A stretch of DNA of 64,000 nucleotides, taken from positions 1-64,000 of the IMG/VR virus record IMGVR_UViG_3300045988_090117; one strand, given 5' to 3'. Both the position numbers and the translations under genes were made by a program. Shown in pieces: positions 4,091 to 63,319 of the stretch. Origin of the DNA: a virus. Position 1 is the first letter of the stretch. Each line of letters starts with the position of its first letter. The notes under the pieces are model-generated. The model was not told the origin of the DNA. It worked only from the letters and a program-made list of their open reading frames with translations, and did not search any database.

Positions 4091-6538
4091 CTAGCTTGTT
4101 TTAGTTAAATTACAATATGATAAATATTTACGTGGGTCATAACATCCATATCTTATTTTAGTAGTTTCGGCAACAAAAGTATATTTAGTATTATAATCAC
4201 CTGTAGTAGTAAATAACTCTTTAACAAAGTTATCATTATCATCATAAGCATAACACCATACCCATGTAGCATCCATTTGTAGTGAATAGTGTGCACCTTT
4301 TTCAACTGTTATTGGATTAACTGTTGCCCAGTCTTCTGTACTATCAACTATCTTATGTGTACTATTATCCACTTTTTTACCAAAAGTCATATTACCAATA
4401 GTACCTGGTTCTGGTTCTGGTGTAGCACCACCGGAATCCTTAGCTCTTAATACTCCATTTGATACTGTTAATGTAATTTGTTTTGATACACCTGAATGAG
4501 AAGTACCTGTGATTATTACTTCACCATTAGCACCTGCATAACTACTACATAATCCACTGTGGCAAGTTACTAAACTTGTATTATTAGATTGCCATGTAAT
4601 TGATTTATTAATACAGTTATCATTAAATTTTGGTCTAACAACACAATTATGTGAACTGTCGTTAAAATCTGTAGCCTCTAACTCAAAATCAGATGAATTT
4701 TCAACTAGATTATCTGTACTCAATGGATAATATTTTACCCAATCAACATATTGAGTTATTTCAGTTGTACTACTATCAGGAGTACCACCGCTAGCTCCAA
4801 TTGCTTGGTTAAGTAGTATAAAGTGCGGTATATGGAATGCTCTGTTATCAGTAGCACTTGTTCTTGATAATTCATTTCCATCAATAGAGAAAACTAAGCT
4901 GCCATCTGTATTCCATTCCATAGCAAACTCATGCCAATCACCAGTTGGATAATTATCATACCATACACGTCCGCTTTCTTCTTTTTCGTTGAAGAACGTA
5001 CCGCAAGTTAGCTTGCCATTATAAAATTCCATTACGTCAAATTCACCACAATATGCCCACCATTCACCTAGTGTATCAGGGCTACCATTTTCTTTATATC
5101 CAAATTCAAAACTATCTCCTAAAGTCCAAAATGCTCCAAAAGAACCATTGTAATTACATGCTCTAACTCTAGCAACTATCTTACCATACATGAAAGCAAA
5201 ATGACCTTTAGAGATAATTGATGCAGATGTCCAAGAACCATCACTTGCTTTTTTACCTCTTAAAGCTAATATACCATTGTTAACTTCAGCATTTGTATTT
5301 GTATATTTTTGAGTTTCATTATTTCTTACATAACCTAATTCATATGACCATTTATTTGAGTCTACACTACTACCTGAGAAATCATCGATTACATAAGCAC
5401 CAGTAGAATCTAATAATGAACTTGAACTTGAGCCATTTTCCTTCAATGTACCTGTAATAGCAGTACTTGCATCACCAGTAGCACATATTAATATTTTAGT
5501 TATATTTGCTGGCACAGTAAACGTATATGATAACTCTTTATTTGACCAATCATCTGTGTTGCCTTCGACAAATGATACATAAGAATTTGATGAATTATAA
5601 TAACAAACACATACATAATTAGCTTTATTAAGATTGATAGTATATGATTTACCAGCAGTTACACTTATATAATTTAATGTACTATAATATGCTCCATCTG
5701 TGGTATCTGCAATCACACCATCATTAAGTCTTTTATATTGAGTGAAAATCAATGCGTCTTTATTTACTAAAGTAACAGTAAATACATTACTTGTTTTAGT
5801 AGTACCTTTTGCAGTTGTCACTCTTATAGCCATTTGATAAGTTCCTGCATCACCCTTATTATCGTGTTTAAATCGATATCTTGTACCAGTGGATTCCACT
5901 TCGGTTGTTTTATCGTAGAATGTATTTCCTCCATCCCATGAAACTTCGTGTTTTGTTACCGCTATATTTGTACTATATTCAATATAAAATTCAGTTTTTT
6001 CAGTTTGTGTTATGTTTTCAATATTACTAATAGTTAGAGTTTCAGGTGTTACTGGAATTGCCTCAGTTGTAACAGTGATAGTAATGTTGCCAGTAACATT
6101 TGGTATATTAATATTACTTCCTCTAATAACAGTATTACTTATATCAGTTCCACCCATTACAACACTAATATTTTTTACATTATAGCCTTCATTAGCGGCC
6201 ACAATAGTTGAATAACTAGAACCTTTTTTAATTGATTTAGTTGAGTTACTACTTGTTGCTTGATTTAAAGTGTATGTTATAGTGTAGTATGTATCGGTAG
6301 TTCCTCCTCCACTCTCAGTATATACACATTTTAACTTACATTTATCATATGTACCATTATCCCAGTTACTAATATTAAAAACTGCACTAGACTTAGTAAA
6401 GGAAGTGGCACTTATATAAGTACTACCTCCATCTTTACTAAGTAGAATGTCTGAGATATTAGTAACATCGGTTGTAAAATTCACGGTCAAAGTATCGCCG
6501 GATGTACTGGGATTACTTGTTACAGTTATTGTTGCCAT
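4091..6538 (-). CDS. Tail fibre/spike protein with an internal GH16 (laminarinase-like) glycoside hydrolase domain and a Big_2-like domain
   Basis: 815 aa. Residues ~380-606 look like a ConA-like glucanase fold with the GH16 catalytic signature E-x-D-x-x-E = GEFDVMEF (codons at 5027-5044). A Big_2-like segment follows (ITWQSNNTSLVTCHSG...ITLTVSNG). Confidence 0.7.
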   Translation of the reverse strand: MATITVTSNPSTSGDTLTVNFTTDVTNISDILLSKDGGSTYISATSFTKSSAVFNISNWDNGTYDKCKLKCVYTESGGGTTDTYYTITYTLNQATSSNSTKSIKKGSSYSTIVAANEGYNVKNISVVMGGTDISNTVIRGSNINIPNVTGNITITVTTEAIPVTPETLTISNIENITQTEKTEFYIEYSTNIAVTKHEVSWDGGNTFYDKTTEVESTGTRYRFKHDNKGDAGTYQMAIRVTTAKGTTKTSNVFTVTLVNKDALIFTQYKRLNDGVIADTTDGAYYSTLNYISVTAGKSYTINLNKANYVCVCYYNSSNSYVSFVEGNTDDWSNKELSYTFTVPANITKILICATGDASTAITGTLKENGSSSSSLLDSTGAYVIDDFSGSSVDSNKWSYELGYVRNNETQKYTNTNAEVNNGILALRGKKASDGSWTSASIISKGHFAFMYGKIVARVRACNYNGSFGAFWTLGDSFEFGYKENGSPDTLGEWWAYCGEFDVMEFYNGKLTCGTFFNEKEESGRVWYDNYPTGDWHEFAMEWNTDGSLVFSIDGNELSRTSATDNRAFHIPHFILLNQAIGASGGTPDSSTTEITQYVDWVKYYPLSTDNLVENSSDFELEATDFNDSSHNCVVRPKFNDNCINKSITWQSNNTSLVTCHSGLCSSYAGANGEVIITGTSHSGVSKQITLTVSNGVLRAKDSGGATPEPEPGTIGNMTFGKKVDNSTHKIVDSTEDWATVNPITVEKGAHYSLQMDATWVWCYAYDDNDNFVKELFTTTGDYNTKYTFVAETTKIRYGCYDPRKYLSYCNLTKTS

Positions 6539-44607: not shown

Positions 44608-44643
44608 TATATATAGTATAGAAAAAGTGGGTGATTTACTAAC
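44608..44643 (-). promoter_or_regulatory. Phage promoter motif copy (-35 TTAGTA, 16 nt, -10 TATACT)
   Basis: Plus strand reads tatatatagtatagaaaaagtgggtgatttactaac. The -35 sits in the loop of the dut terminator hairpin. Confidence 0.65.
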
Positions 44644-44651
44644 CACCCACT
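44622..44651 (-). terminator. Rho-independent terminator after dut, overlapping the promoter
   Basis: Stem agtgggtg (44626-44633) / cacccact (44644-44651), loop atttactaac, minus-strand U5. Confidence 0.6.
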
Positions 44652-48819: not shown

Positions 48820-48855
48820 CAATTATAGTATAGAAAAAACCCGGTATTTACTAAC
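48820..48855 (-). promoter_or_regulatory. Phage promoter motif copy (-35 TTAGTA, 16 nt, -10 TATACT)
   Basis: Plus strand reads caattatagtatagaaaaaacccggtatttactaac. The -35 sits in the loop of the polA terminator hairpin. Confidence 0.65.
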
Positions 48856-48860
48856 CGGGT
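48834..48860 (-). terminator. Rho-independent terminator after polA exon 3, overlapping the promoter
   Basis: Stem acccggt (48839-48845) / accgggt (48854-48860), loop atttacta, minus-strand U-run. Confidence 0.6.
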
Positions 48861-48871
48861 CTTCAATATTT

Positions 48872-49579
48872 TTATATTTCTATTCCTTCTCCATACCATC
48901 TATATGTACATTCTATATCAGTCTTCATTGGTATTTCAAATTTTCCGTCTACTACGTGTACCATAATGTACTCTAATATATCTCTCACCTCTTTGGCATT
49001 CTCTTTTGGACATACTCCCAATACTTCATCATGCACCGGTATGATTAATTTATATCCCAACTCTTGTAGTCTTTTATTGTCATGAATTCTTATCATTGCT
49101 ATCTTTGTCATGTCGGCTGCACTACCTTGAATTATACTGTTAACACATTGTCTTTGAGCGTCGGCTATATATCCACCATTATCCACTAATTTATATCCCT
49201 CATCCTTGGCCATTTGTTTTATTTTTTCTTTTGCCTCCTTACCAAAGGCTCTATTCATTAATTTAAGATATTTGAAGTAAACCTCATCGCTCACCTCTGT
49301 AGTGGACCCACCAGTAAAATCTAATGGATTAAAGGTATCAGCTAAATTAGGGTTTTCCACTGTTATCTCTATTGGATCTAGTTGCATATTTGGTAATCTT
49401 CTTTTTCTACCCCATGCAGTCTCTACAAAACCATACTCTCTTGCATTCTCTTGAGCAAATTCTACAAACTCTTTTACTCTTGGAAATTGTTTATAAAAGT
49501 CATTTATAACCTGTTGTGCTTCCTCTTTACTGATATTCATCTGCTCGGCTATACTTGTTACACCTCTACCATACATAAT
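48872..49579 (-). CDS. polA: DNA polymerase I (family A), exon 3
   Basis: Begins I-MYGRGVTSIAEQMNISKEEAQ, completing motif B (ILLG|IMYG). Contains VHDEVLG (motif C). Confidence 0.8.
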   Translation of the reverse strand: MMYGRGVTSIAEQMNISKEEAQQVINDFYKQFPRVKEFVEFAQENAREYGFVETAWGRKRRLPNMQLDPIEITVENPNLADTFNPLDFTGGSTTEVSDEVYFKYLKLMNRAFGKEAKEKIKQMAKDEGYKLVDNGGYIADAQRQCVNSIIQGSAADMTKIAMIRIHDNKRLQELGYKLIIPVHDEVLGVCPKENAKEVRDILEYIMVHVVDGKFEIPMKTDIECTYRWYGEGIEI

Positions 49580-50634
49580 CAGTTTATACCGCCCCTTTCG
49601 GGGTACTTTAACACTTGTTATGCCAAGTCGGCTTAGACTATATCATCCCTCTTACGAGGGGAGCGCTTCGTATATCGTACCAATAGATACACTACTCCAT
49701 AAAGGATAGTCGTTACACTTCTTCCCAATGGTAGCCGTATGCTCTTATATTTCTTTTCATACTCTCTTTTATTTGAGTATTACAACTTTGTGACGTTTTA
49801 GTTTTACATAAACCTTGTGCAACTAACCATTTCCATGCCTCAGTATAACTACTAAATGTTTTATCAAGTTCTATAAGTTTTACCGGTTTACGACATTTAC
49901 TTATTCTACCAGTATTACATTTACTTATAATATCTTTTGTTTCTTGTGTATGGTGTTTACCATAAAATGCATTATCTTTACCAGTATATTTACCTTGTCT
50001 AGCTTTACTTAGCGCTAATTTATGTTCCGGTGATTTTGCTACTCCTTTTAACTTAGATGCTCTTTGTTGTATGAAAAGTTGTCTATCAGTATCAGATAAT
50101 GTACTCCAAAATTGTCTACTGGCTTGAGACATTTTTAGTTTATCTTCATCCGTATGTTTATAACCAGGTACGCCAGCTCCACCTGGAGTCATATTATAAC
50201 CATCTTTATAACTATTAAATATTGATATATAATATACTTCTCTCTCATTTAATTTGTCTATTGAGCATTCCTCTAATAAATACATATGAAATTTATCAAC
50301 ACCATATTTAAGTAGTGCATTATGAAAATGTGTACCGTTATTTATATCAGAACTAGTATGTTCATACCATCTTTGTTTTAATGATGTACTTGTTTGTCCT
50401 ACATATACTTTATGATTAATATCGTCAATTACAATATAAATATATCCCATAATCTCACCCCCTTCACGGCTATCATTGTTGGTTAGCACGGTCTAACCAT
50501 ATGAGATATAAAATTATATTGGTTTATATATAATATTATAGCACACTTAGGCTTTAACCGTTAGCATAAAATAAAAAATTTTATACACCCCTGGTAGGGT
50601 TCACTTTCTTTTATTTGGGCTATACTTGTGGTTT
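49580..50634 (-). mobile_element. Group I intron 2 in polA (1055 nt) carrying a GIY-YIG endonuclease ORF
   Basis: The 5' exon ends in U (..TTGGGT|) and the intron ends in G (..AAACTG|ATT). GC-rich structured flanks sit in an AT-rich genome. The core element GATGATATAGTCTAAGCC (49630-49647) matches the group I S/P7 consensus AAGAUAUAGUC. Joining the exons restores the reading frame. Confidence 0.8.
49713..50450 (-). CDS. GIY-YIG homing endonuclease (intron-encoded)
   Basis: Contains GYIYIVIDDINHKVYVGQTS...WYEH...YN (GIY-YIG), NUMOD3-like repeats (HTDEDKLKMS, SPEHKLALS, HTQETKDIIS) and a C-terminal HTH. ATG 50450 follows GGGGGTGAG. Confidence 0.8.
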   Translation of the reverse strand: MGYIYIVIDDINHKVYVGQTSTSLKQRWYEHTSSDINNGTHFHNALLKYGVDKFHMYLLEECSIDKLNEREVYYISIFNSYKDGYNMTPGGAGVPGYKHTDEDKLKMSQASRQFWSTLSDTDRQLFIQQRASKLKGVAKSPEHKLALSKARQGKYTGKDNAFYGKHHTQETKDIISKCNTGRISKCRKPVKLIELDKTFSSYTEAWKWLVAQGLCKTKTSQSCNTQIKESMKRNIRAYGYHWEEV

Positions 50635-50964
50635 ACCCAATAATATAGGCTTAACGGAGCTTCTACGTTGTTTTCCTTCTGGGTTAACTGTACCGTCAGG
50701 TCTAAACTCCTTACATTCTTCATATGGTTGATTGTACAATTTACTTGCTATCGTGGCATATAGGTCCTTTCCATCTAAATACGCTTGTATCATATGTTTA
50801 TCGCCACTCATATGTGCTAAACATCTCGGCTCCTGCTGCGAAAAATCTCCACCTATTATTACATTGCCTTCTCCTGCAATAAACATTTGTCTTATATCAT
50901 GTCCAGCATCTATTACAGTCCCATCACTTAATTTCTTTGTTTTACTGGGTATATTTTGTAAATT
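50635..50964 (-). CDS. polA: DNA polymerase I (family A), exon 2
   Basis: 110 codons: NLQNIPSK...GGDFSQQEPRCLAH (motif A, DYSQIELR-like)...RRSSVKPILLG. Confidence 0.8.
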
Positions 50965-51693
50965 CACATTGTTAGCGTAGAGGCTCTTTATCCTCTACCT
51001 CTTATGGTTCGTATTCCCATAAGGTCAGACTATATCTCAAACTTATAAAAAGCGACCTGTCTCTTTATCTCGACGATTATTTAAATCGGTACTATGATAT
51101 TTTTCTTGATGTTCTGCACGTGTAGTCAAAACTAAATTTTCTATTCGATTATCCAACTTATTCCCATTCTTATGGTGAACTATCTCATCCGATGTTAACT
51201 TACGTCCTAAATAATCTTCCATAACTTTACGATGTACAAAATATCTATTATTCAACTCTGAAACAACTAAATAACCATCGTATAAATAAACACGTGGTTT
51301 TCGTCCTTCTCCACGTCTTTTAAGTTGTAATCGACTAGCTTTATGCAGAATACTACCCTCACTGCGATTTAAATATTCACTACATTGTTTAAGTCCTAAT
51401 TTCTCATAATTTTTAACAAGCCATTCTAATTCCGTTTTTGTCCATTGTTTTCTCATATACATTACCTCCTCCATTTACATAATAGTAACATATATGGAAT
51501 ATTTTGTAAACACTTTTTATAAGTCCAGGGGCGCTCGTGGATGGGTTATTGGTGTGCTCCTCACCATCTAGTCGTTAGACTTTCACGGTACATTTTTACA
51601 CTTCCCGTGCTTAGTACGGTATTAGCATCGCAGCCTTCACCGTTTCACCCCTGTATGCATCTATCATATCACTATGATAGCGCCCAATTATTT
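50965..51693 (-). mobile_element. Group I intron 1 in polA (729 nt) carrying an HNH endonuclease ORF
   Basis: The splice restores TGRFSSSNP|NLQNIP. The 5' exon ends in U and the intron ends in G. A structured GC-rich 5' part lies at 51475-51693. The core element GAGATATAGTCTGACC is at 51023-51038. Confidence 0.8.
51043..51456 (-). CDS. HNH homing endonuclease (intron-encoded)
   Basis: Contains [24 protein letters not shown] (HNH) and an N-terminal SANT/HTH-like [16 protein letters not shown] 51456 lies 8 nt after GGAGGAGG. Confidence 0.75.
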
Positions 51694-53010
51694 AGGATTA
51701 CTACTACTAAAACGTCCTGTCTTTGCGCCATACTGGTTGAAGTTCGCGTGTAACTTACCAGTTCTTTTGCTTATATGGTCAGGAATGGCATCAATATAAG
51801 TACTTAATAGTTTACTCATACCTCTATACTCTAATATACTATTCACTAATGGGTGGTTTAATTGTTTCAGTTGTTCTTCTCCCACGCTACGTTGACCTTT
51901 TGGTGGCTCTAATTTTAAGACATCATAGAATAATATTACTAACTGTTGATTACTTCCTATATTAATTTTCACATCTCCAAATTCACTTATTTTGCCATAC
52001 TTGTCTGGATGCTTAACTCGTAGGTCATTAAATGCGCCCTGCTTATCCAGCTTCTCTACTTCGGTATTAAATTCATTAAGAGCATTATCCATATACGTAG
52101 TATATCGTTGTTTTAACTCTTGAGCTAAGTTTGTATCTATATCTACTCCTTGTGCCTCCATATCGAATACTACTTCTATTAATGGCATTTCTATATTCCT
52201 GAATACATCTGCCACCCTTTCAAGTCCTTTTTTATAACAGTATTTTCCATCTCTGTCCAAATACTCACGTTGAAATTCATATAATTCAAAAGTCATTATA
52301 GGGTCAAAGGCTGCGTACATATAGCCAACATCTGGAGGTATTTTATTGAACTCAATGCCATTAAATAATTCACCAAATTTACCTACCTCAGCACTTTCAC
52401 CAGTACAATACTTTTGCCATAATACTTTTAAGCCATGTGGTTCATTTTCATTAAGTAAATACCCTCCAATTAATGTGTCCCAGTATGGTACTATTTTTAC
52501 TCCTACCATCCAATATAATATATGCATATCGAACTTAGCGTTATGTAGCACAAATCTAATATTATTATCTGACCAAGATTGTATTAATTTCCTAACTACT
52601 TCAATAGATACATTACTTTGTAATTCCGTATTTGTCATATAACTTATATGTCCTACTGGAATATAAATACCTTTTTCATATGGTGTATAAAGACATATAC
52701 CAGCTACTTTTCCGTCTATTCTATCAAGTCCGTTTGTCTCAGTATCTAGTGCTACTATGCCATTGGCTACTACTTTTTTATCGAACTGTTTTAACCTATC
52801 TTCACTAGTTACTAATTCCATTCTATCTAGTCTATCAGCAAATATTTTAGTAGACATCATCTTTGCATATTCTACTTTATCCTTCATTGTCTTAGGTACT
52901 ATTGATGTTACTGGCGCTCTTTTATTTTTCTTTTTACTCAACACTTCTAACGCTTTTTTATTCGCCTCTTTGTTATTACAACGACTAAATGTATCTTTAA
53001 ACAAACTCAT
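51694..53010 (-). CDS. polA: DNA polymerase I (family A), exon 1 (3'-5' exonuclease and N-terminal polymerase part)
   Basis: 439 codons. Exo motifs are VALDTETNGL and HNAKFDM. It ends ...NQYGAKTGRFSSSNP. The track ORF continues one codon (K, then stop) into the intron. Confidence 0.8.
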
Positions 53011-56225: not shown

Positions 56226-56257
56226 ACAACTGCCTCCTTTATATTTATAAGTCTTAC

Positions 56258-56293
56258 TATATATAGTATAGTAAGACTTTATTTTTTACTAAC
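56258..56293 (-). promoter_or_regulatory. Phage promoter motif copy (-35 TTAGTA, 16 nt, -10 TATACT)
   Basis: Plus strand reads tatatatagtatagtaagactttattttttactaac. The -35 overlaps the stop of the sigma-like gene. Confidence 0.65.
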
Positions 56294-57969: not shown

Positions 57970-58120
57970 CTTCACATAACTCCCATCTACTATGGTCTTC
58001 TATCCACTCATCTAGGCACTCAGTACTGCAAAACTTAAGTTCCTTATAACTACAATAATCAGGTAATTCTAAAACTATATAATCATAGTCTAATTTTTCT
58101 TCACAATGTTCACATCTCAT
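57962..58120 (-). CDS. Small Cys-rich protein (52 aa, below track cutoff)
   Basis: MRCEHCEEKLDYDYIVLELPDYCSYKELKFCSTECLDEWIEDHSRWELCEDD. GGAGGG lies 6 nt upstream. Confidence 0.4.
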   Translation of the reverse strand: MRCEHCEEKLDYDYIVLELPDYCSYKELKFCSTECLDEWIEDHSRWELCEDD

Positions 58121-58122
58121 AA

Positions 58123-58278
58123 TTATCCCTCCTGTATTTTATATAATAAATCAAATAGTGGGTCTAGGTGCTCAAATACTAAATCACCTTCATCCACTGC
58201 TTTATTTATCAGCCATTTTAATTCTCGTACTAAATCTTTTTCTATTTCCATTTCTCTTATTTTTCTACCAGTTAACAT
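58123..58278 (-). CDS. Small hypothetical protein (51 aa, below track cutoff)
   Basis: MLTGRKIREMEIEKDLVRELKWLINKAVDEGDLVFEHLDPLFDLLYKIQEG. AAGGAG lies 8 nt upstream. Confidence 0.4.
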   Translation of the reverse strand: MLTGRKIREMEIEKDLVRELKWLINKAVDEGDLVFEHLDPLFDLLYKIQEG

Positions 58279-58292
58279 ATAATCAACTCCTT

Positions 58293-58328
58293 TAAATATA
58301 TTATATTAAATTTATTAAAATTACTAAC
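58293..58328 (-). promoter_or_regulatory. Phage promoter motif variant (-35 TTAGTA, 16 nt, -10 TATAAT)
   Basis: Minus strand reads GTTAGTAATTTTAATAAATTTAATATAATATATTT. It restarts transcription after the unit A terminator. Confidence 0.55.
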
Positions 58329-58340
58329 TAACAAATTAAA

Positions 58341-58436
58341 AAAATAAAAACCCCTGACACTGTCCGCTCCAATGCCAGGGTAAAAAAAGGGGAGTTATAT
58401 TATGAGTAGAAGAATGTGCCTCCACATTTCCTCTAC
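58341..58436 (-). ncRNA. Candidate small RNA, unit A (~96 nt, bounded by promoter and terminator)
   Basis: Minus strand reads GTAGAGGAAATGTGGAGGCACATTCTTCTACTCATAATATAACTCCCCTTTTTTTACCCTGGCATTGGAGCGGACAGTGTCAGGGGTTTTTATTTT. It has a 5' 13-bp hairpin, a C-rich linker and a terminator hairpin (58352-58380) with a U-run. Confidence 0.5.
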
Positions 58437-58471
58437 ATATATAGTATAGAAAAAAATGCCATTTTACTAAC
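58436..58471 (-). promoter_or_regulatory. Phage promoter motif copy (-35 TTAGTA, 16 nt, -10 TATACT)
   Basis: Minus strand reads GTTAGTAAAATGGCATTTTTTTCTATACTATATATG. It starts at the helicase stop codon. Confidence 0.7.
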
Positions 58472-59766
58472 TAAAAAACATCAGTAACATCAATTATTTT
58501 ATTATTATTTCTAAGTGGTAATTGTGGCTCAATCTCAGCTCCATCTTCCAATTGTTCAGTCACAAATGAGAAAATACCGTTGTCTATGTCCCACACATAT
58601 AATAATTGCTTATTATTTTCTCCATATCTATTCTTAGTTATTTTAAGACTCAATCCCGCTTTAGTCTGCACAAGAGATATAACCCTACTACTATTCTGAG
58701 CAATACCATCACTCTCACCTATATCTGCTAGTTCGGGATTCTCAGGTTTGTCGATATCAGCTTTATTTCTATTTGCTTGTGCATCTACTATAATTGGGAT
58801 GCTGAATTCTATACTGATATTAAATAAATCTTGAGCAATATGTGTGTACTGAGTTCTTGTTTGGTCTCCCTTTCCTCGTCTCTCATCTTCCATTAATGAT
58901 ATTTGGTCTATGCCAACTATGTCTGGTTTATACTCTTTTATAAGTGCTCTTAGTTTACTAACTGTTAACATTTTACCTCCAAAGTCTACTGGTGTTACTA
59001 CTATATATGGAGGTAATTCTTTATTAGTTTCCAGATCATTAATGTATTGCTTATAATCTCCATCTGCTATTGTACCTCTCATTAATTGAGAGTTTGTGTA
59101 GTTCATACCTAATGTATCATTTCTATATGCCACTTGTAATACACCCATCTCACCACTGTAATGGAGTACTTTTTTATATTGTCTATTTGCCTCTGTTAGA
59201 AACTTTTGTAACAGCCAAGATTTACCTTGGTTTACTCTACCAACTATAGTTACTAGTTCTTCACCTGGTAGCCATCCATTAAGTATCTTGTCTAATTCAG
59301 GTAAGCCACTACCAATTCCTAACATACCACCTTTAGCACGTTTATTCTCTAAGTCCTTTATTTTCTCATCAACCATATTGTTAATATTTACTCCATTACT
59401 CTGAACAGTTTGGTCAAGTAAACGTTGTGCCCTTGTGACTATATGTTGTAAGCCATCAAAAGCATTCTGTTCTAATACATCACCACTAGCTTGAAATAGT
59501 GCCACTCCTTGGTCAAATAGATAGTTTTCTTTTAGATTATAGATAATATATTTTAGTGGCTCTAATACTTCAACAACATCAAAGTCAGGAAATTTTCCCA
59601 TGAATGTTTCCCAGTCAGGTACTTTTCCATAAGTTCTAAAGTGAGTACATATAAAATCAAACTCATCTTGATAGTCTTTAAAATACTCTTTTGTTATCCC
59701 TTGACTCGTATACGCATCTAAATTATTATTATTTAATATATCATTAATTGCTTGTAGTTGTACCAT
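58471..59766 (-). CDS. dnaB: Replicative DNA helicase (DnaB family)
   Basis: 431 aa. Contains GLPELDKILNGWLPGEELVTIVGRVNQGKSWLL (Walker A), IVGIDQISLM (Walker B) and ...IVDAQANR. Confidence 0.8.
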   Translation of the reverse strand: MVQLQAINDILNNNNLDAYTSQGITKEYFKDYQDEFDFICTHFRTYGKVPDWETFMGKFPDFDVVEVLEPLKYIIYNLKENYLFDQGVALFQASGDVLEQNAFDGLQHIVTRAQRLLDQTVQSNGVNINNMVDEKIKDLENKRAKGGMLGIGSGLPELDKILNGWLPGEELVTIVGRVNQGKSWLLQKFLTEANRQYKKVLHYSGEMGVLQVAYRNDTLGMNYTNSQLMRGTIADGDYKQYINDLETNKELPPYIVVTPVDFGGKMLTVSKLRALIKEYKPDIVGIDQISLMEDERRGKGDQTRTQYTHIAQDLFNISIEFSIPIIVDAQANRNKADIDKPENPELADIGESDGIAQNSSRVISLVQTKAGLSLKITKNRYGENNKQLLYVWDIDNGIFSFVTEQLEDGAEIEPQLPLRNNNKIIDVTDVF

Positions 59767-60479
59767 TATATTCTCACCCCTTTTGGTTTCCTTTGTGGCT
59801 TGTTAATAAATTCTACTATTGTACTTGTATCTAATATTCTACTCGCCAACCTACCACCAATATTATCATCTAACTGTTCATCAATAACATTACTAGTAAA
59901 TATATTAGCTTTATTATTTACTATACGTGGGTTAATAAGACTAAATAATATTTGGTGGTCATATTCTTTTAACTTAGTTACTCCTATGTCGTCCCAAATT
60001 ACAAGATCTACTGTTGGTATTAATTTTTCCATTTCTTCTAGTCTCAAGTCAGGTCGTTTTATGGCATTTCTTTTAGCCATTAAGAACTCATCTACATTGA
60101 TGAATAGACCTCTACAACGTGTGCCATTGCCATTCCAAATATTACTAAAATATTTACTCATTAACTTTATTGCCCACGTAGTTTTACCATTACCAAAATA
60201 TGGGCTATATAAATATAAGTTACATCCATCTTGTACAAATTCATTGATATTATTCTTTACACCATTAAGATACTCGTACTTTTTAAGATCATCACCCGCA
60301 CTCAACTTCAAGTCCTCAGGTTGCTGCTTATTCGGTGGAATATTTGCCAAGTTAACCAAATAATAATATTGAAAATATACACTACAACTACAATTGCAGT
60401 CCTTTGTATTATACATAGGACAGTTAGTCCTAAACCAACATTTATCTTTATTAAATTTAAATTCTTTTACATCATACAT
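59766..60479 (-). CDS. DnaC/IstB-like AAA+ helicase loader with a Cys-rich N-terminus
   Basis: 237 aa. Walker A is SPYFGNGKTTWA and Walker B is LVIWDDIG. The N-terminus has CWFRTNCPMYNTKDCNCSC. Confidence 0.65.
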   Translation of the reverse strand: MYDVKEFKFNKDKCWFRTNCPMYNTKDCNCSCSVYFQYYYLVNLANIPPNKQQPEDLKLSAGDDLKKYEYLNGVKNNINEFVQDGCNLYLYSPYFGNGKTTWAIKLMSKYFSNIWNGNGTRCRGLFINVDEFLMAKRNAIKRPDLRLEEMEKLIPTVDLVIWDDIGVTKLKEYDHQILFSLINPRIVNNKANIFTSNVIDEQLDDNIGGRLASRILDTSTIVEFINKPQRKPKGVRI

Positions 60480-60495
60480 ACTAAAAACCTCCCTT

Positions 60496-60531
60496 TATTT
60501 ATAGTATAGTAAAAAATCTACTTTTACTAAC
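60496..60531 (-). promoter_or_regulatory. Phage promoter motif copy (-35 TTAGTA, 16 nt, -10 TATACT)
   Basis: Plus strand reads tatttatagtatagtaaaaaatctacttttactaac. It restarts transcription after the unit B terminator. Confidence 0.65.
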
Positions 60532-60534
60532 AAG

Positions 60535-60632
60535 AAAAAACCCCCGATACCAAAGGGGGGGGGTAGATATCGGGGTAAAAAATAAATATTAAGGGGTTAT
60601 ATATGTAAGGGGCTGAATACCATATTCCTTAC
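60535..60632 (-). ncRNA. Candidate small RNA, unit B (~98 nt, bounded by promoter and terminator; C9 loop)
   Basis: Minus strand reads GTAAGGAATATGGTATTCAGCCCCTTACATATATAACCCCTTAATATTTATTTTTTACCCCGATATCTACCCCCCCCCTTTGGTATCGGGGGTTTTTT. Its architecture is homologous to unit A. Confidence 0.5.
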
Positions 60633-60667
60633 ATATATAGTATAGAAAAAATCCCCATTTTGCTAAC
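60632..60667 (-). promoter_or_regulatory. Phage promoter motif copy (-35 TTAGCA, 16 nt, -10 TATACT)
   Basis: Minus strand reads GTTAGCAAAATGGGGATTTTTTCTATACTATATATG. It lies directly after the methyltransferase 2 stop. Confidence 0.7.
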
Positions 60668-60669
60668 TA

Positions 60670-61425
60670 CTAAAATAATTTTCTTTGTCTACTAATCGTC
60701 TCTAATCTATCTTTAGTTATATTAAAATATTTTTTATCTAACTCAATTCCGATAAACCTTCTATTTAAATTCAAACAAGCCACTCCGGTACTACCTGAAC
60801 CCATTGTAAAGTCAAGAATTACATCACCTTCATTTGTATATGTTTTAACTAAATATTCAAGCAATGCGACTGGCTTTTGTGTTGGATGATATCTATTTTT
60901 AACATCTCTATTAAATTTAATAATTGAAACAGGGTATCTTTTGCCATCATTCTTAGATATATAGCCATCAATCGTCCCTACGCCTCTATATACACCACGC
61001 ACACGAGGTCTTTTTACTACATATGGTTCCCCCTCTGTAAATTGTGGATTATATGTGGGTAACTTTTTATAAAACACCAATATATTCTCATGTTTCTTTA
61101 GTGGCATTCTTTTAGCATTAAGCCCACCTGTTCCCTGTTCTTTTTCCCATATCCATTCATATCTAAGCATCTCTAAATTACTAACTCCAAGAACTTTATC
61201 AAATGGAGTTTGAGCAAATAAACATATAACTGCATTATCTTTTATTAATTTATTTAGTCTCTCCCACATACCATCTAATGGGATTATTGAATCCCATTTA
61301 CAGGCAGTTGTCCCGTATGGGGGATCTGTAATTATAGCATCGACTTTTACACCCCCCTTAATCAACTTATCCATTATTTCCAGGCAATCACCATTATATA
61401 ATTTATAGTTTTCATTATTATTCAT
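60670..61425 (-). CDS. DNA methyltransferase 2 (N6-A/N4-C, DPPY beta-class), close paralogue of 47956-48789
   Basis: Contains DAIITDPPYGTTACKWDSIIPLDGMW...HPTQKPVALLEYLVKTYTNEGDVILDFTMGSGSTGVACLNLNRRFIGIE. Confidence 0.8.
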   Translation of the reverse strand: MNNNENYKLYNGDCLEIMDKLIKGGVKVDAIITDPPYGTTACKWDSIIPLDGMWERLNKLIKDNAVICLFAQTPFDKVLGVSNLEMLRYEWIWEKEQGTGGLNAKRMPLKKHENILVFYKKLPTYNPQFTEGEPYVVKRPRVRGVYRGVGTIDGYISKNDGKRYPVSIIKFNRDVKNRYHPTQKPVALLEYLVKTYTNEGDVILDFTMGSGSTGVACLNLNRRFIGIELDKKYFNITKDRLETISRQRKLF

Positions 61426-61452
61426 ACAGACTCATCTCCTTATTTTTATTTA

Positions 61453-61488
61453 CAAATAAAGTATATAAAAATGTAAAAATTTGCTAAC
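61453..61488 (-). promoter_or_regulatory. Phage promoter motif copy (-35 TTAGCA, 16 nt, -10 TATACT)
   Basis: Minus strand reads GTTAGCAAATTTTTACATTTTTATATACTTTATTTG. Confidence 0.6.
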
Positions 61489-61512
61489 TAAAATAAAAAA
61501 AACTCTTGAATG

Positions 61513-62331
61513 TTATCTAAATCTTTTGTTTCTAGTAGAAACTTTATCATCTACTATTTCTCTTTTACATCTCCATTTTTCAAATTTTTTAATTTCATCT
61601 TTATCACCAATATATTTTTTCTTTAATGCTGCTATAGTGTTCCCCATAAAATGTTCCTCATCTTCCATCATATATAACTCTACCCATTTTTCGGCAGTTT
61701 CTTTTATATCTAAATATAATTGCCAAGGGTATTTATTGTCTGTATCCATAAATAAGTTAAATAATGGTTGTTTCATGTATATTTTTTTCAAACCACCTTT
61801 ATAAGAAGCTATTTGAGCCATGACTTTACTTAAAGCTATACATTTTTTACTATCACCTATTATTTCATAAAAATCATATGTTTCATGTGCTTCTTGTCGT
61901 CTAAATGATAATAACTGTTCTTTTAAATGTTCTGCTACTATAAATTTCTCACAATCAACAAAGTATTTTCTTAATTCCTTACTTATTCGTTTTGTTTCTT
62001 TATTTACTCTAGGTTTAGCTCCTATTGTCATCACTATTTCATTCGCTATATCCAATGATATAAAATAATCTGTGTGTGGTCGACCTCCAGTACTTTTTCG
62101 TTTTAAAACGATAAAGTCTATTCCTTCTTCAGCATCTATTTCTTTTAATACCTTTGGCATCCAATCAGCAAAATGTGTAGTAGTTTTATTTAATCGTATA
62201 CCCTTAAATAATTCAAAACCATCAATTCCTAATAACGGTTTCCCTTCTGTACCTAAATATTCTACATCTTCATATATAGGTACTATTTCACTTAGTGCGA
62301 AGTCTTTAATACGCCATTTTTTATTTCTCAT
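61513..62331 (-). CDS. AntA/AntB-type antirepressor-domain protein
   Basis: ...FADWMPKVLKE...GIDFIVL...GGRPHTDYFISLDIANEIVM...ISKELRKYFVDCEK matches my memory of the AntA pattern (dY.ltldmAKel.M...R.YFI.cE). The start is ATG 62331 (9 nt after GAGGAG) or 62340. Confidence 0.55.
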   Translation of the reverse strand: MRNKKWRIKDFALSEIVPIYEDVEYLGTEGKPLLGIDGFELFKGIRLNKTTTHFADWMPKVLKEIDAEEGIDFIVLKRKSTGGRPHTDYFISLDIANEIVMTIGAKPRVNKETKRISKELRKYFVDCEKFIVAEHLKEQLLSFRRQEAHETYDFYEIIGDSKKCIALSKVMAQIASYKGGLKKIYMKQPLFNLFMDTDNKYPWQLYLDIKETAEKWVELYMMEDEEHFMGNTIAALKKKYIGDKDEIKKFEKWRCKREIVDDKVSTRNKRFR

Positions 62332-62363
62332 GTTCCCCATCTCCTCAAATTTTATTTATCCTA

Positions 62364-62399
62364 CACATATAGTATATAAAAATGTTAAAATTTGCTAAC
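62364..62399 (-). promoter_or_regulatory. Phage promoter motif copy (-35 TTAGCA, 16 nt, -10 TATACT)
   Basis: Minus strand reads GTTAGCAAATTTTAACATTTTTATATACTATATGTG. It restarts transcription after the unit C terminator. Confidence 0.65.
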
Positions 62400-62410
62400 T
62401 AAAATAAATA

Positions 62411-62586
62411 AAAAAAAATTCCAGTGGGTTACCAAGCCACTGGAATGTATATGGGGATTGTTAATAATTTCTTATTAGTTGGTTATATGAAGTTAATCAC
62501 CTACTCTCTTATTATACACTATTGGGTCATATAAGAAAATAATAAAAATTAAAATAATATAAAAATAATTTAATAAAATAAGTTAC
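62411..62586 (-). ncRNA. Candidate small RNA, unit C (~176 nt, bounded by promoter and terminator)
   Basis: Very AT-rich body with no SD-led ORF. It ends ...AACAATCCCCATATAC, followed by a 10-bp terminator hairpin (62418-62427 / 62437-62446) and U8. Confidence 0.45.
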
Positions 62587-62621
62587 ATATATAATATAGA
62601 AATTTTGGTCAATTTACTAAC
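62586..62621 (-). promoter_or_regulatory. Phage promoter motif copy (-35 TTAGTA, 16 nt, -10 TATATT)
   Basis: Minus strand reads GTTAGTAAATTGACCAAAATTTCTATATTATATATG. It lies directly after the methyltransferase 3 stop. Confidence 0.6.
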
Positions 62622-62623
62622 TA

Positions 62624-63319
62624 CTAAAATAATTTTTTCTGTCTATTATTCAACTTAACATTTTCAAGTCGTTCTTTAGATATATTAAAGTAATTTTCAT
62701 TTAATTCAATTCCTATGAATCTTCTATTAGTATTTAAACAAGCAACACCTGTGCTGCCACTACCCATAAATGAGTCTAAAATTAAGTCATTTTCATTTGT
62801 TGATTGTTTTATAAAGATCTCTAATAAATCAACAGGTTTTTGTGTTGGATGCAATTTATTTCCAGTTCTTTTAGCTTGTATGACATCTGGTAATCTTTTA
62901 CCGTTTCTTAATCTTCGTCCTTTATGTCCAAATAATATAAATTCATGCTTAGGGGCATATGATCCCTTTAAATCGCCCATAGATATATTATTCTTTTCCC
63001 ATACTATTATATTTTTTAATGTGAAGTATTTTTCAAATGCAATTTTAAATTTATCTATATGATGCCAACTACAAAAGCAATATATATGAGTATTATCTTT
63101 TAACAATTTATCACATTTTTGAAAATATTCATCTAAAAATGATAAATCATCATCATTACTAATTTGCTTATATTTTTCTTTTCTACGATTACTTTTAAAC
63201 TCCATACCATAGGGTGGATCGGATATTACTGCATCCACTTTTACTCCATCTTTAATTAATTTATCCATAATTTCTAAGCAGTCACCTTGATATAATTTAT
63301 ACCTTTCATTATTATTCAT
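62624..63319 (-). CDS. DNA methyltransferase 3 (N6-A/N4-C, DPPY beta-class), more divergent paralogue
   Basis: Contains DAVISDPPYG...HPTQKPVDLLEIFIKQSTNENDLILDSFMGSGSTGVACLNTNRRFIGIE. It shares the N-terminus MNNNERYKLYQGDCLEIMDKLIKDGVKVD and the C-terminal KKLF with the other two. Confidence 0.75.
   Translation of the reverse strand: MNNNERYKLYQGDCLEIMDKLIKDGVKVDAVISDPPYGMEFKSNRRKEKYKQISNDDDLSFLDEYFQKCDKLLKDNTHIYCFCSWHHIDKFKIAFEKYFTLKNIIVWEKNNISMGDLKGSYAPKHEFILFGHKGRRLRNGKRLPDVIQAKRTGNKLHPTQKPVDLLEIFIKQSTNENDLILDSFMGSGSTGVACLNTNRRFIGIELNENYFNISKERLENVKLNNRQKKLF

Follow-up and report, generated by a model that had tools for sequence, protein, structure and literature searches.

The LhrC RNAs are multicopy small RNAs with UCCC motifs, chromosomally encoded and stress-induced. 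Type I small RNAs of 3' untranslated regions (3'-UTR), such as DapZ, possess their own promoter at the end of an upstream gene, whose terminator they share; they are Hfq-dependent and enterobacterial. In phages, the PR'-6S RNA-tR' arrangement of lambda (Q antitermination) and the put RNAs of HK022 display promoter-proximal stem-loops or a terminator and a short abundant transcript. To our knowledge, a function has been established for few of the small RNAs of Gram-positive phages, whether these phages are virulent or not. [quoted passage not shown] The virulent Listeria phage CKA15 produces abundant, promoter-driven short transcripts without any open reading frame (ORF); as these non-coding transcripts lack canonical intrinsic terminators and UCCC motifs, their authors argue against base pairing (PMC12282133). 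The element analyzed here, Unit A, occupies positions 58341-58436 (minus strand) of a 64,000-nucleotide (nt) stretch, referred to below as the window, which corresponds to positions 1 to 64,000 of the IMG/VR virus record IMGVR_UViG_3300045988_090117. That Unit A and a second cassette, Unit B, are stand-alone genes for small non-coding RNAs is well supported, and a third cassette, Unit C, is probably another, the three RNAs ranging from about 95 to 180 nt. Units A and B form a new RNA family, unmatched in Rfam, of a known kind, the C-rich small RNA type.

Architecture of the three units

The promoter, hairpin, linker, terminator and second promoter which the earlier note had assigned to Unit A from the letters alone proved accurate to the base, and Unit B does repeat this layout. 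Unit C, absent from that note, has the same organization. The features of the units are the following:

58441..58471, minus strand: Unit A promoter P1, GTTAGTAAAATGGCATTTTTTTCTATACTAT = GTTAGTAAA-N12-TTTCTATACTAT, a copy of the repeated phage motif which begins on the G of the helicase stop codon, TAG
58406..58436, minus strand: Unit A 5' hairpin from the predicted fold, 13 bp closed by a GAGG loop, a single A being bulged, beginning at the predicted transcription start
58381..58405, minus strand: Unit A unpaired 25-nt linker UCAUAAUAUAACUCCCCUUUUUUUA, with CUCCCC at 58389-58394; probability of being unpaired, P(unpaired), 0.99
58341..58380, minus strand: Unit A intrinsic terminator, made of a G+C-rich stem of 11 bp (58352-58380) and then GUUUUUAUUUU, -18.8 kcal/mol
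58298..58328, minus strand: Unit A second promoter P2, upstream of the next gene (ATG 58278)
60637..60667, minus strand: Unit B promoter P1, a match to the motif
60535..60636, minus strand: Unit B transcript, with 5' hairpin 60601-60636, linker and terminator 60541-60575
60501..60531, minus strand: Unit B second promoter P2, a full consensus copy, for the helicase-loader gene (ATG 60479)
62410..62620, minus strand: Unit C, with promoter, about 170 nt of A+T-rich non-coding RNA, and terminator 62419-62444 followed by U9
62591-62620, minus strand: Unit C promoter, a match to the motif
62369-62399, minus strand: promoter after Unit C, a match to the motif

The promoter motif GTTAGYAA-N12-18-TAYAMTAT is present in 11 copies in the window against 0.04 expected, and a looser form in 16 copies against 0.62 expected, all of them on the minus strand. 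Its consensus reaches beyond both hexamers (GTTAGTAAA-N12-TTTCTATACTATATATGTAA) and takes in the first transcribed bases. According to standard promoter geometry, transcription of Unit A would start at G58436, the seventh base downstream of the -10 box TATACT and the first base of the hairpin. The predicted transcript has a minimum free energy (MFE) of -34.6 kcal/mol (z = -5.25), and none of 200 shuffled sequences folds as well; the MFE structure is in agreement with the centroid, the linker comes out as more than 95% unpaired, and the tract after the terminator stem is GUUUUUAUUUUUUU. Of the unpaired elements, the exposed C-rich motif to which the earlier note drew attention is the best conserved, and its accessibility is predicted. 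In Unit B, the linker (AUAUAACCCCUU) contains ACCCCUU, with CCCC at 60593-60596, and the terminator loop carries a C9 run at 60555-60563; P(unpaired) is 0.99 for the former and 1.0 for the latter. The RNA of Unit C holds AAUCCCCAUAU, with CCCC at 62453-62456. A promoter follows the terminator in all three units, and no other terminator of the window is preceded by a promoter without a gene between the two.

The terminator of Unit C presents a loop of its own, YCUGGUAAM (CUUGGUAAC or CCUGGUAAA), which is kept in the window, in L018 (~3753), in L100 (~162) and in L103 (~3466), these being related phage genomes. The stem below it covaries (AGUGG/CCACU, AACGG/CCGUU, GGUGG/CCACC, UGUGG/CCACA, GGUAG/CUACC), and a loop of the same type is also found in the 5' hairpin of the Unit A of L020. 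The UUACC found at the base of both the Unit A and the Unit B terminators is complementary to the GGUAA of this loop, which may carry no meaning.

Conservation, covariation and coding potential

Conservation and covariation in related phages had been proposed in the earlier note as a check, and both were found, with compensatory changes in the stems. Among close relatives, all three variable stem positions of the Unit A terminator convert G.U to Watson-Crick pairs. The 5' stem of relatives has changed in both of its arms and remains intact. In the Unit B alignment, which comprises 14 distinct sequences, 99.2% of the cells are paired, none of 500 shuffles reaches the covariation score, and two terminator pairs are compensatory (C-G to U-A and G-C to A-U). 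A covariance model was built from Unit B alone. This model, which scores Unit B itself at 96.3 bits, matches Unit A over its full length (58344-58438, 38.5 bits, E 1.4e-4) and returns just these two matches in the 64-kb window; it also finds units on which it was not trained in L103, L019, L020 and L107. Because the Unit B model finds Unit A, the two units are paralogues of one RNA family. Nothing convincing was obtained with it in phiCTP1, Flasso and other outgroup contigs, and Unit C was undetected by the Unit A/B covariance model. The alignment of distant Unit A homologues by MAFFT misaligned the stems, and a model-based alignment was used in its place. In this alignment of 30 distinct members, which is fitted to the model so that its figures lean towards the structure, 97.3% of cells are paired and 16 of the 19 pairs change on both sides, a result equaled by none of 500 shuffles; slid controls are 32-50% paired. 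Twelve diverse homologues all fold as a 5' hairpin, an open linker and a terminator, with z values of -2.9 to -5.8.

The Rfam search agreed with the earlier note, whose author did not recognize Unit A from any described system: the unit matches no family. Over the whole window, no family reaches its gathering score, and a scan of 58200-62700 with permissive filters at E<=10 returned nothing significant and did not list RsaE. Of the units, only Unit B was matched, by RsaOG, at 20.8 bits (E 6.7) where the gathering score is 50. A literature search retrieved no description of a comparable phage RNA family.

Selection was assessed on an alignment of 17 close genomes, where pi denotes mean pairwise diversity:

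Third codon positions of five flanking genes (loader, helicase, primase, two small genes): pi 0.20-0.24, 50-62% variable columns
First codon positions of the same five genes: pi 0.04-0.07
Unit A transcript: pi 0.051, 13% variable columns
Unit A linker: pi 0.038, 8% variable columns
Unit A terminator: pi 0.039, 10% variable columns
Unit B transcript: pi 0.132, 36% variable columns
Unit B linker: pi 0.063, 16% variable columns

Unit A is under purifying selection. Beyond promoter and terminator, its transcribed part is constrained about as strongly as first codon positions, which is hard to square with a leftover promoter or a bare terminator.

At larger distances, relatives whose helicase identity is as low as about 55% have a unit with the Unit A layout in the gap that follows their helicase gene: L018 (78%), L100 (77%), L103 (72%), L019 and L020 (71%), L037 and L104 (64%), L105 (61%), L107 (60%), L038-L046 (56-58%), L053 (56%) and L048 (55%). 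It is absent from L049-L051, at 52-53% identity. Most of these relatives also possess a unit upstream of the loader gene, and the phages of this gut family, of roughly 65-70 kb, carry two to four compact cassettes per early region. No comparable unit was seen in the regions read of phiCTP1 and Flasso, where the covariance model gives no match either, and an exact-pattern scan of viral contigs with CTCATAATATAACTCCC retrieved only contigs already recovered through the helicase. The sequences of the 5' stem are clade-specific (GUAGAGG/CUUCUAC in the window, GUAAGAGG/CCUCUUAC in L018, GUAAGAAG/CUUCUUAC in L100, GUAACAG/CUGUUAC in L103), and the terminator differs from clade to clade. In the open linkers, an A/U-rich stretch is retained, with a C-run and U's behind it (UCAUAAUAUAACUCCCCUUUUUUU, CAUAAUAUAAUACAAUCCCCUUUUAUAAU, CAUAAUAUACCCCCUUUAAUAAU, CAUAAAACCCCCUUUUUU, CAUAAUAAAUCCCCUUUAUAAU). 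The sequences of the C-run differ between clades (CUCCCCUUUU, CUCCCUUUC, AUCCCCUUUA), and in the clade at 56-58% helicase identity the run lies instead in the loop of the 5' hairpin (AUUCCCCAUUA).

Among the 30 distinct members, the linker contains CCC in 29 and CCCC in 21. The terminator loop shows at least four consecutive C in 17 members, which comprise B-type units and the unit of L107 and no others. In 20 homologues tested, the C-run has a P(unpaired) of at least 0.89 in all but one; the exception, the Unit A of L103, has CUCC and no run of three or more C. Runs of at least four C number 23 in the 64-kb window; six are located within about 370 nt of Units A, B and C, and three others in structured, intron-like RNA of the polymerase gene. 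When terminators of the family are compared, 22 of the 42 distinct ones that have non-coding sequence upstream carry such a run, in the loop or within 70 nt upstream, against 1 of 21 directly after genes and 0 of 42 in outgroup phages. A pseudoknot between the hairpin loop (GGAGG) and the CUCC of the linker was considered as well and was rejected, being contradicted by the uncompensated loop change from GGAGG to GGCGG; in L018 the loop is GGUGG.

The only ORF pointed out in Unit A by the earlier note, the 10-codon MWRHILLLII, is present, with an SD-like sequence 1-2 nt from its ATG. Its ATG is lost in L011 and L015, and a 1-nt insertion alters its frame and length in L002, L003, L004, L007, L016 and L017; because this mini-ORF is lost or frameshifted in relatives, Unit A is non-coding. 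In L008-L010 the ORF of Unit B is without an ATG, and elsewhere it varies in frame and in stop. On the plus strand, GGGGAGTTATATTATG (58389-58404), the reverse complement of the Unit A linker, resembles an SD sequence (GGGGAG) with an N7 spacer and an ATG. The plus-strand ORFs translated from the unit sequences of relatives count 3, 3, 8, 9, 15, 15 and 29 codons and share no common sequence, and in Unit B the plus-strand ATG is directly followed by TAA.

Possible function and alternative explanations

The favored reading, held tentatively and at somewhat less than an even chance, is that the units are trans-acting small RNAs whose C-run pairs with the G-rich ribosome-binding regions of a subset of mRNAs. 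The standard, sigma-A-like promoter of the phage, whose Unit A copy overlaps the end of the helicase gene, would fire, and the RNA would begin at or a few bases from the stable 5' hairpin. In Bacillus, 5'-proximal stem-loops protect RNAs against 5'-end-dependent decay, and by analogy with such mRNAs the hairpin would shield the transcript in the same manner. The intrinsic terminator, canonical in form and presumably strong, would end the RNA about 95 nt further on and would also halt read-through from the upstream operon. The unpaired A/U-rich linker would present the C-run (CUCCCC or ACCCCU, then U's) as the functional element, with a second C-run offered by the terminator loop in Unit B. By analogy with RsaE/RoxS, this run may pair with host or phage mRNAs bearing GGGG or GGGAG and block translation initiation; such a subset, and not all SD sequences, would be expected because the seed is CCCC rather than CCUCC. 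The second promoter after each terminator would free downstream expression from the cassette.

The target searches, together with several features of the units themselves, weigh against regulation by base pairing. The linker forms duplexes with 69 phage ribosome-binding regions at a mean of -10.2 kcal/mol, compared with -5.7 kcal/mol for random segments, and this complementarity is only generic, as any C/U-rich sequence would show it. When the window was searched with the 16-mer complementary to the Unit A linker (GGGGAGTTATATTATG) and up to three mismatches, only Unit A itself was matched; the same search with the Unit B counterpart gave matches at chance level. The best Unit A duplexes involve the methylase gene at 63319 (-17.4 kcal/mol) and the primase gene at 57975 (-16.9 kcal/mol), the minimum among random segments being -17.4 kcal/mol, and neither site is conserved in relatives. 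The CCCC would pair imperfectly with the canonical GGAGG. The 5' end, the promoter activity and the efficiency of termination are all predictions made from sequence. Folding of the sense and antisense strands is uninformative, the sense strand folding better in 11 of 20 homologues. Finally, the second promoter is not recognizable in some relatives, for example in the Unit A of L019, where the next gene begins a few bases past the U-tract, and in that of L103; in such relatives the unit would double as a leader to the genes after it.

The primase and the 63319 methylase had been taken up as specific targets, the linker of Unit A showing an 11-bp match at the primase start region and a 12/13 match at the methylase site. 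Both were rejected, being no better than random segments and not conserved. The statement of the earlier note that nearly every gene uses GGAGG or GGGAGG could not be upheld as worded: GGAGG was counted at 18 and a 5-mer SD core at 26 of 58 ORFs of at least 100 amino acids, an underestimate since the first in-frame start was taken and true starts often lie further downstream.

Other explanations are considered by decreasing probability. It is possible, if unlikely, that the RNAs are selected for protein binding, the exposed C/U tract acting as a decoy or sponge for a host factor with a preference for unstructured pyrimidine-rich RNA, such as Rho or a ribonuclease, or for a phage RNA-binding regulator. 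The conservation and accessibility of the tract fit this proposal equally well, and the searches for mRNA targets found none. The transcribed strand is made of 39% A, 20% G, 28% T and 12.4% C; this strong purine bias of the coding strand (59.5% A+G) fits the Rho-avoidance idea proposed for Bacilli, and the units stand out in it as rare exposed pyrimidine-rich stretches. Rho in Bacillus is highly specific for C- and U-rich RNA, which genes avoid (PMC13323073). The unpaired tract nevertheless measures about 25 nt, against the long (>150 nt) excess-C stretches of Rho-terminated fragments (PMC13323073), and no candidate binding protein was identified; this proposal is pure conjecture.

Rather unlikely is a role limited to transcription punctuation, in which one operon would end at the terminator and transcription would resume from the second promoter; the first promoter would be a leftover or a local polymerase-recruiting site and the RNA a by-product. 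Each unit does lie at an operon boundary of the replication module, and compact terminator-promoter fusions exist elsewhere (48859-48825 and 44650-44613). The repeated promoters could also be recombination points, the gene content upstream of the loader being variable among relatives. Such a role does not account for the linker, which has no part in termination or initiation and yet is among the least variable segments (pi 0.038 against about 0.22 at synonymous-like sites), nor for a C-run kept across relatives whose stems are replaced, nor for a 5' hairpin upheld by compensatory changes; moreover, C-runs accompany just 1 of the 21 terminators that simply follow genes.

A particular form of the pairing hypothesis is considered improbable: the cassettes would constitute a multicopy phage mimic of the host RsaE/RoxS-type C-rich seed (CCCCUUU), made in bulk from strong phage promoters early in infection, and would take over a post-transcriptional regulon (e.g. 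central metabolism, redox) or silence GGGG-type mRNAs. If true, this mimicry would be a previously undescribed RNA-based device for host takeover in phages of Gram-positive gut bacteria.

We regard as distinctly improbable a cis-acting leader or attenuator with read-through that is conditional or depends on a phage factor bound at the 5' hairpin or the C-run, similar to lambda PR'-tR' with Q or to RNA-based antitermination. A short terminated transcript beside a promoter is the layout of lambda 6S/tR', and the relatives whose second promoter is unrecognizable (for example at the A units of L019 and L103) would suit this explanation. It is opposed by the promoter present after all three units of the window, a full consensus copy in the case of Unit B, and by the absence of any evident alternative antiterminator pairing, the MFE and centroid structures being in agreement and the linker more than 95% unpaired; the loop change from GGAGG to GGCGG, uncompensated in CUCCCC, speaks against a loop-linker pseudoknot.

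Even less credit is given to a role at the level of DNA, whereby an origin would be activated or primed by transcription through A+T-rich or hairpin DNA close to the genes for helicase, loader and primase. All three units are inside the replication module, Unit C displays about 75 nt of extremely A+T-rich sequence just downstream of its promoter, and bin 62400-62599 has the third-lowest GC content of the region (0.21) and is the sole such bin with a positive GC skew. Units A and B, however, have neither a long A+T-rich unwinding element nor iterons, and their stems include G.U pairs, which would fail to match in DNA or on the opposite strand. For origin activation, one would not expect a terminator at 95 nt from the promoter, and the C-rich RNA does not favor R-loops.

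That the units encode micro-peptides, either MWRHILLLII on the minus strand, whose ATG has AGAGGA nearby, or a short plus-strand ORF behind a GGGGAG-N7-ATG that looks like a textbook SD sequence, spacer and start codon, is hardly credible, given an SD-like sequence merely 1-2 nt from the minus-strand ATG, minus-strand ORFs that lose their ATG or shift frame in close relatives, unrelated plus-strand ORFs of 3 to 29 codons, stopped at once by TAA in Unit B, and the location of all assigned genes and all 16 promoter-motif copies on the minus strand.

The cassettes offer a concrete, mutable element with which the use of C-rich small RNAs by phages for controlling translation in Firmicutes could be tested. 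They also supply a new RNA family for annotation resources, and their compact promoter, hairpin and terminator parts could be used as tools.

Genomic setting and comparison with known systems

The genome is that of a siphovirus of Gram-positive type, with an SPP1-like portal, Dit and tail RIFT domains, an E-type major capsid protein and a Phage_holin_1 holin. All ORFs assigned to genes in the 64-kb window are on the minus strand, and no tRNAs were found in it. Units A, B and C are located in the replication module, on the same strand, with the following neighbors:

63319-62624, minus strand: N6/N4 methylase, upstream of Unit C
62340-61513, minus strand: AntA-like protein, between Units C and B
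61425-60670, minus strand: methylase, upstream of Unit B
60479-59766, minus strand: DnaC/IstB-like helicase loader, after Unit B (ATG 60479)
58471..59766, minus strand: DnaB helicase (DnaB_C), upstream of Unit A
Between Unit A and the primase, minus strand: two small genes, the first with ATG at 58278
57975-56977, minus strand: Toprim primase
After the primase, minus strand: ribonucleotide reductase

No nucleotide match to GenBank phages was obtained with megablast or sensitive blastn. Among cultured phages, Bacillus phage Flasso and Clostridium phage phiCTP1 come closest in their helicase (about 43% identity). The IMG/VR, ENA and Logan assemblies contain a family of contigs of about 65-70 kb, with helicase identities from 98% down to about 50%, one of which originates from a pig gut metagenome. 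The host search in the genome collection gave only two distant matches to metagenome-assembled genomes, one from Mollicutes and one from Bacilli.

A number of additional observations were made in these genomes. Flasso (L112) has a 650-nt gene-free region after its primase gene (5855-6507), which starts with a promoter-like AAAGTTAGTAAAA...TATGTAATAT, with the same -35 box as in the present phage, and contains two copies of AAAGGGAG-N-TGCCAGAAACCCGCA. In the window, two compact terminator-promoter fusions (48825-48859 and 44613-44650, minus strand) hold the -35 box GTTAGTAAA inside the loop of the terminator hairpin, as in CCCGG-TTAGTAAATA-CCGGG, and the T-run of the terminator also makes up the spacer that precedes TATACT in the promoter. 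At 56249-56279, an inverted repeat of 13-14 bp, AAGTCTTACTATA...TATAGTAAGACTT, spans the -10 box and the transcription start of the ribonucleotide reductase promoter. Its core ACTATATATAGT resembles the NrdR-box consensus, perhaps by coincidence, since it is also a single base away from the general consensus of promoter and start in this phage. The genome has three separate N6/N4 DNA methyltransferase genes (63319-62624, 61425-60670 and 48822-47956, minus strand), two of which flank Units B and C. The gene for a family-A DNA polymerase is in three pieces (51688-53010, 50620-50967 and 48872-49576, minus strand, in the region 48872-53010), and each of its two insertions carries a homing-endonuclease ORF, HNH at 51043-51474 and GIY-YIG/NUMOD3 at 49713-50489. 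Their G+C-rich structured flanks suggest group I introns; the Rfam scan detected no intron model at these insertions.

The general features of small RNA genes are found in the units: a promoter motif of their own, an intrinsic terminator, ORFs that are not conserved, and a conserved structure under constraint, the 30-member alignment being model-fitted. Of the described systems, RsaE/RoxS (RF01820) is similar in its size of about 100 nt, its intrinsic terminator, its unpaired C-rich region or regions followed by U's and the pairing with G-rich ribosome-binding sites, which for the units is a proposal. In place of the repeated CCCCUUUGUU of RoxS, the units carry CUCCCCUUUUUUU, ACCCCUUAAU and a C5-9-UUUGG loop, and of the several unpaired C-rich regions typical of RsaE/RoxS, Unit A has one accessible C-run and Unit B two. 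The units differ in that they are unmatched to the Rfam model even at E<=10, in their 5' hairpin flush with the predicted start, and in being phage-borne behind the repeated promoter motif of the phage, instead of a redox-responsive chromosomal gene of the host.

LhrC of Listeria monocytogenes (cited in PMC12282133, reference 58) likewise comprises several paralogous short, terminator-ended RNAs with exposed C-rich motifs in one genome; it is chromosomal and stress-induced, whereas the units are phage-borne. As in the DapZ type, the promoter of Unit A overlaps the stop codon of the helicase gene, and its terminator is the first one after that gene; in contrast, a second promoter comes at once after it here, and the cassette layout recurs three times. 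With lambda PR'-6S-tR' and HK022 put, the units have in common a strong terminator within 100-200 nt of a promoter, upstream of genes, and two stem-loops just after the promoter. Unlike in lambda, a promoter follows the terminator of each unit in the window, so read-through is not needed, which argues against a read-through device; the few relatives without a recognizable second promoter stand apart. Unlike in lambda and put, a canonical terminator forms the second stem-loop. Neither a binding element nor, among the scanned neighbors (methylases, AntA-like, DnaC-like, DnaB, primase, ribonucleotide reductase), a Q-like gene was identified, although no search dedicated to Q was made. Lastly, CKA15 resembles the present phage, whose units are known from their sequence, in having promoter-driven, ORF-less short regions in a phage of Gram-positive bacteria, and differs from it in that the units described here have both terminators and C-rich motifs.

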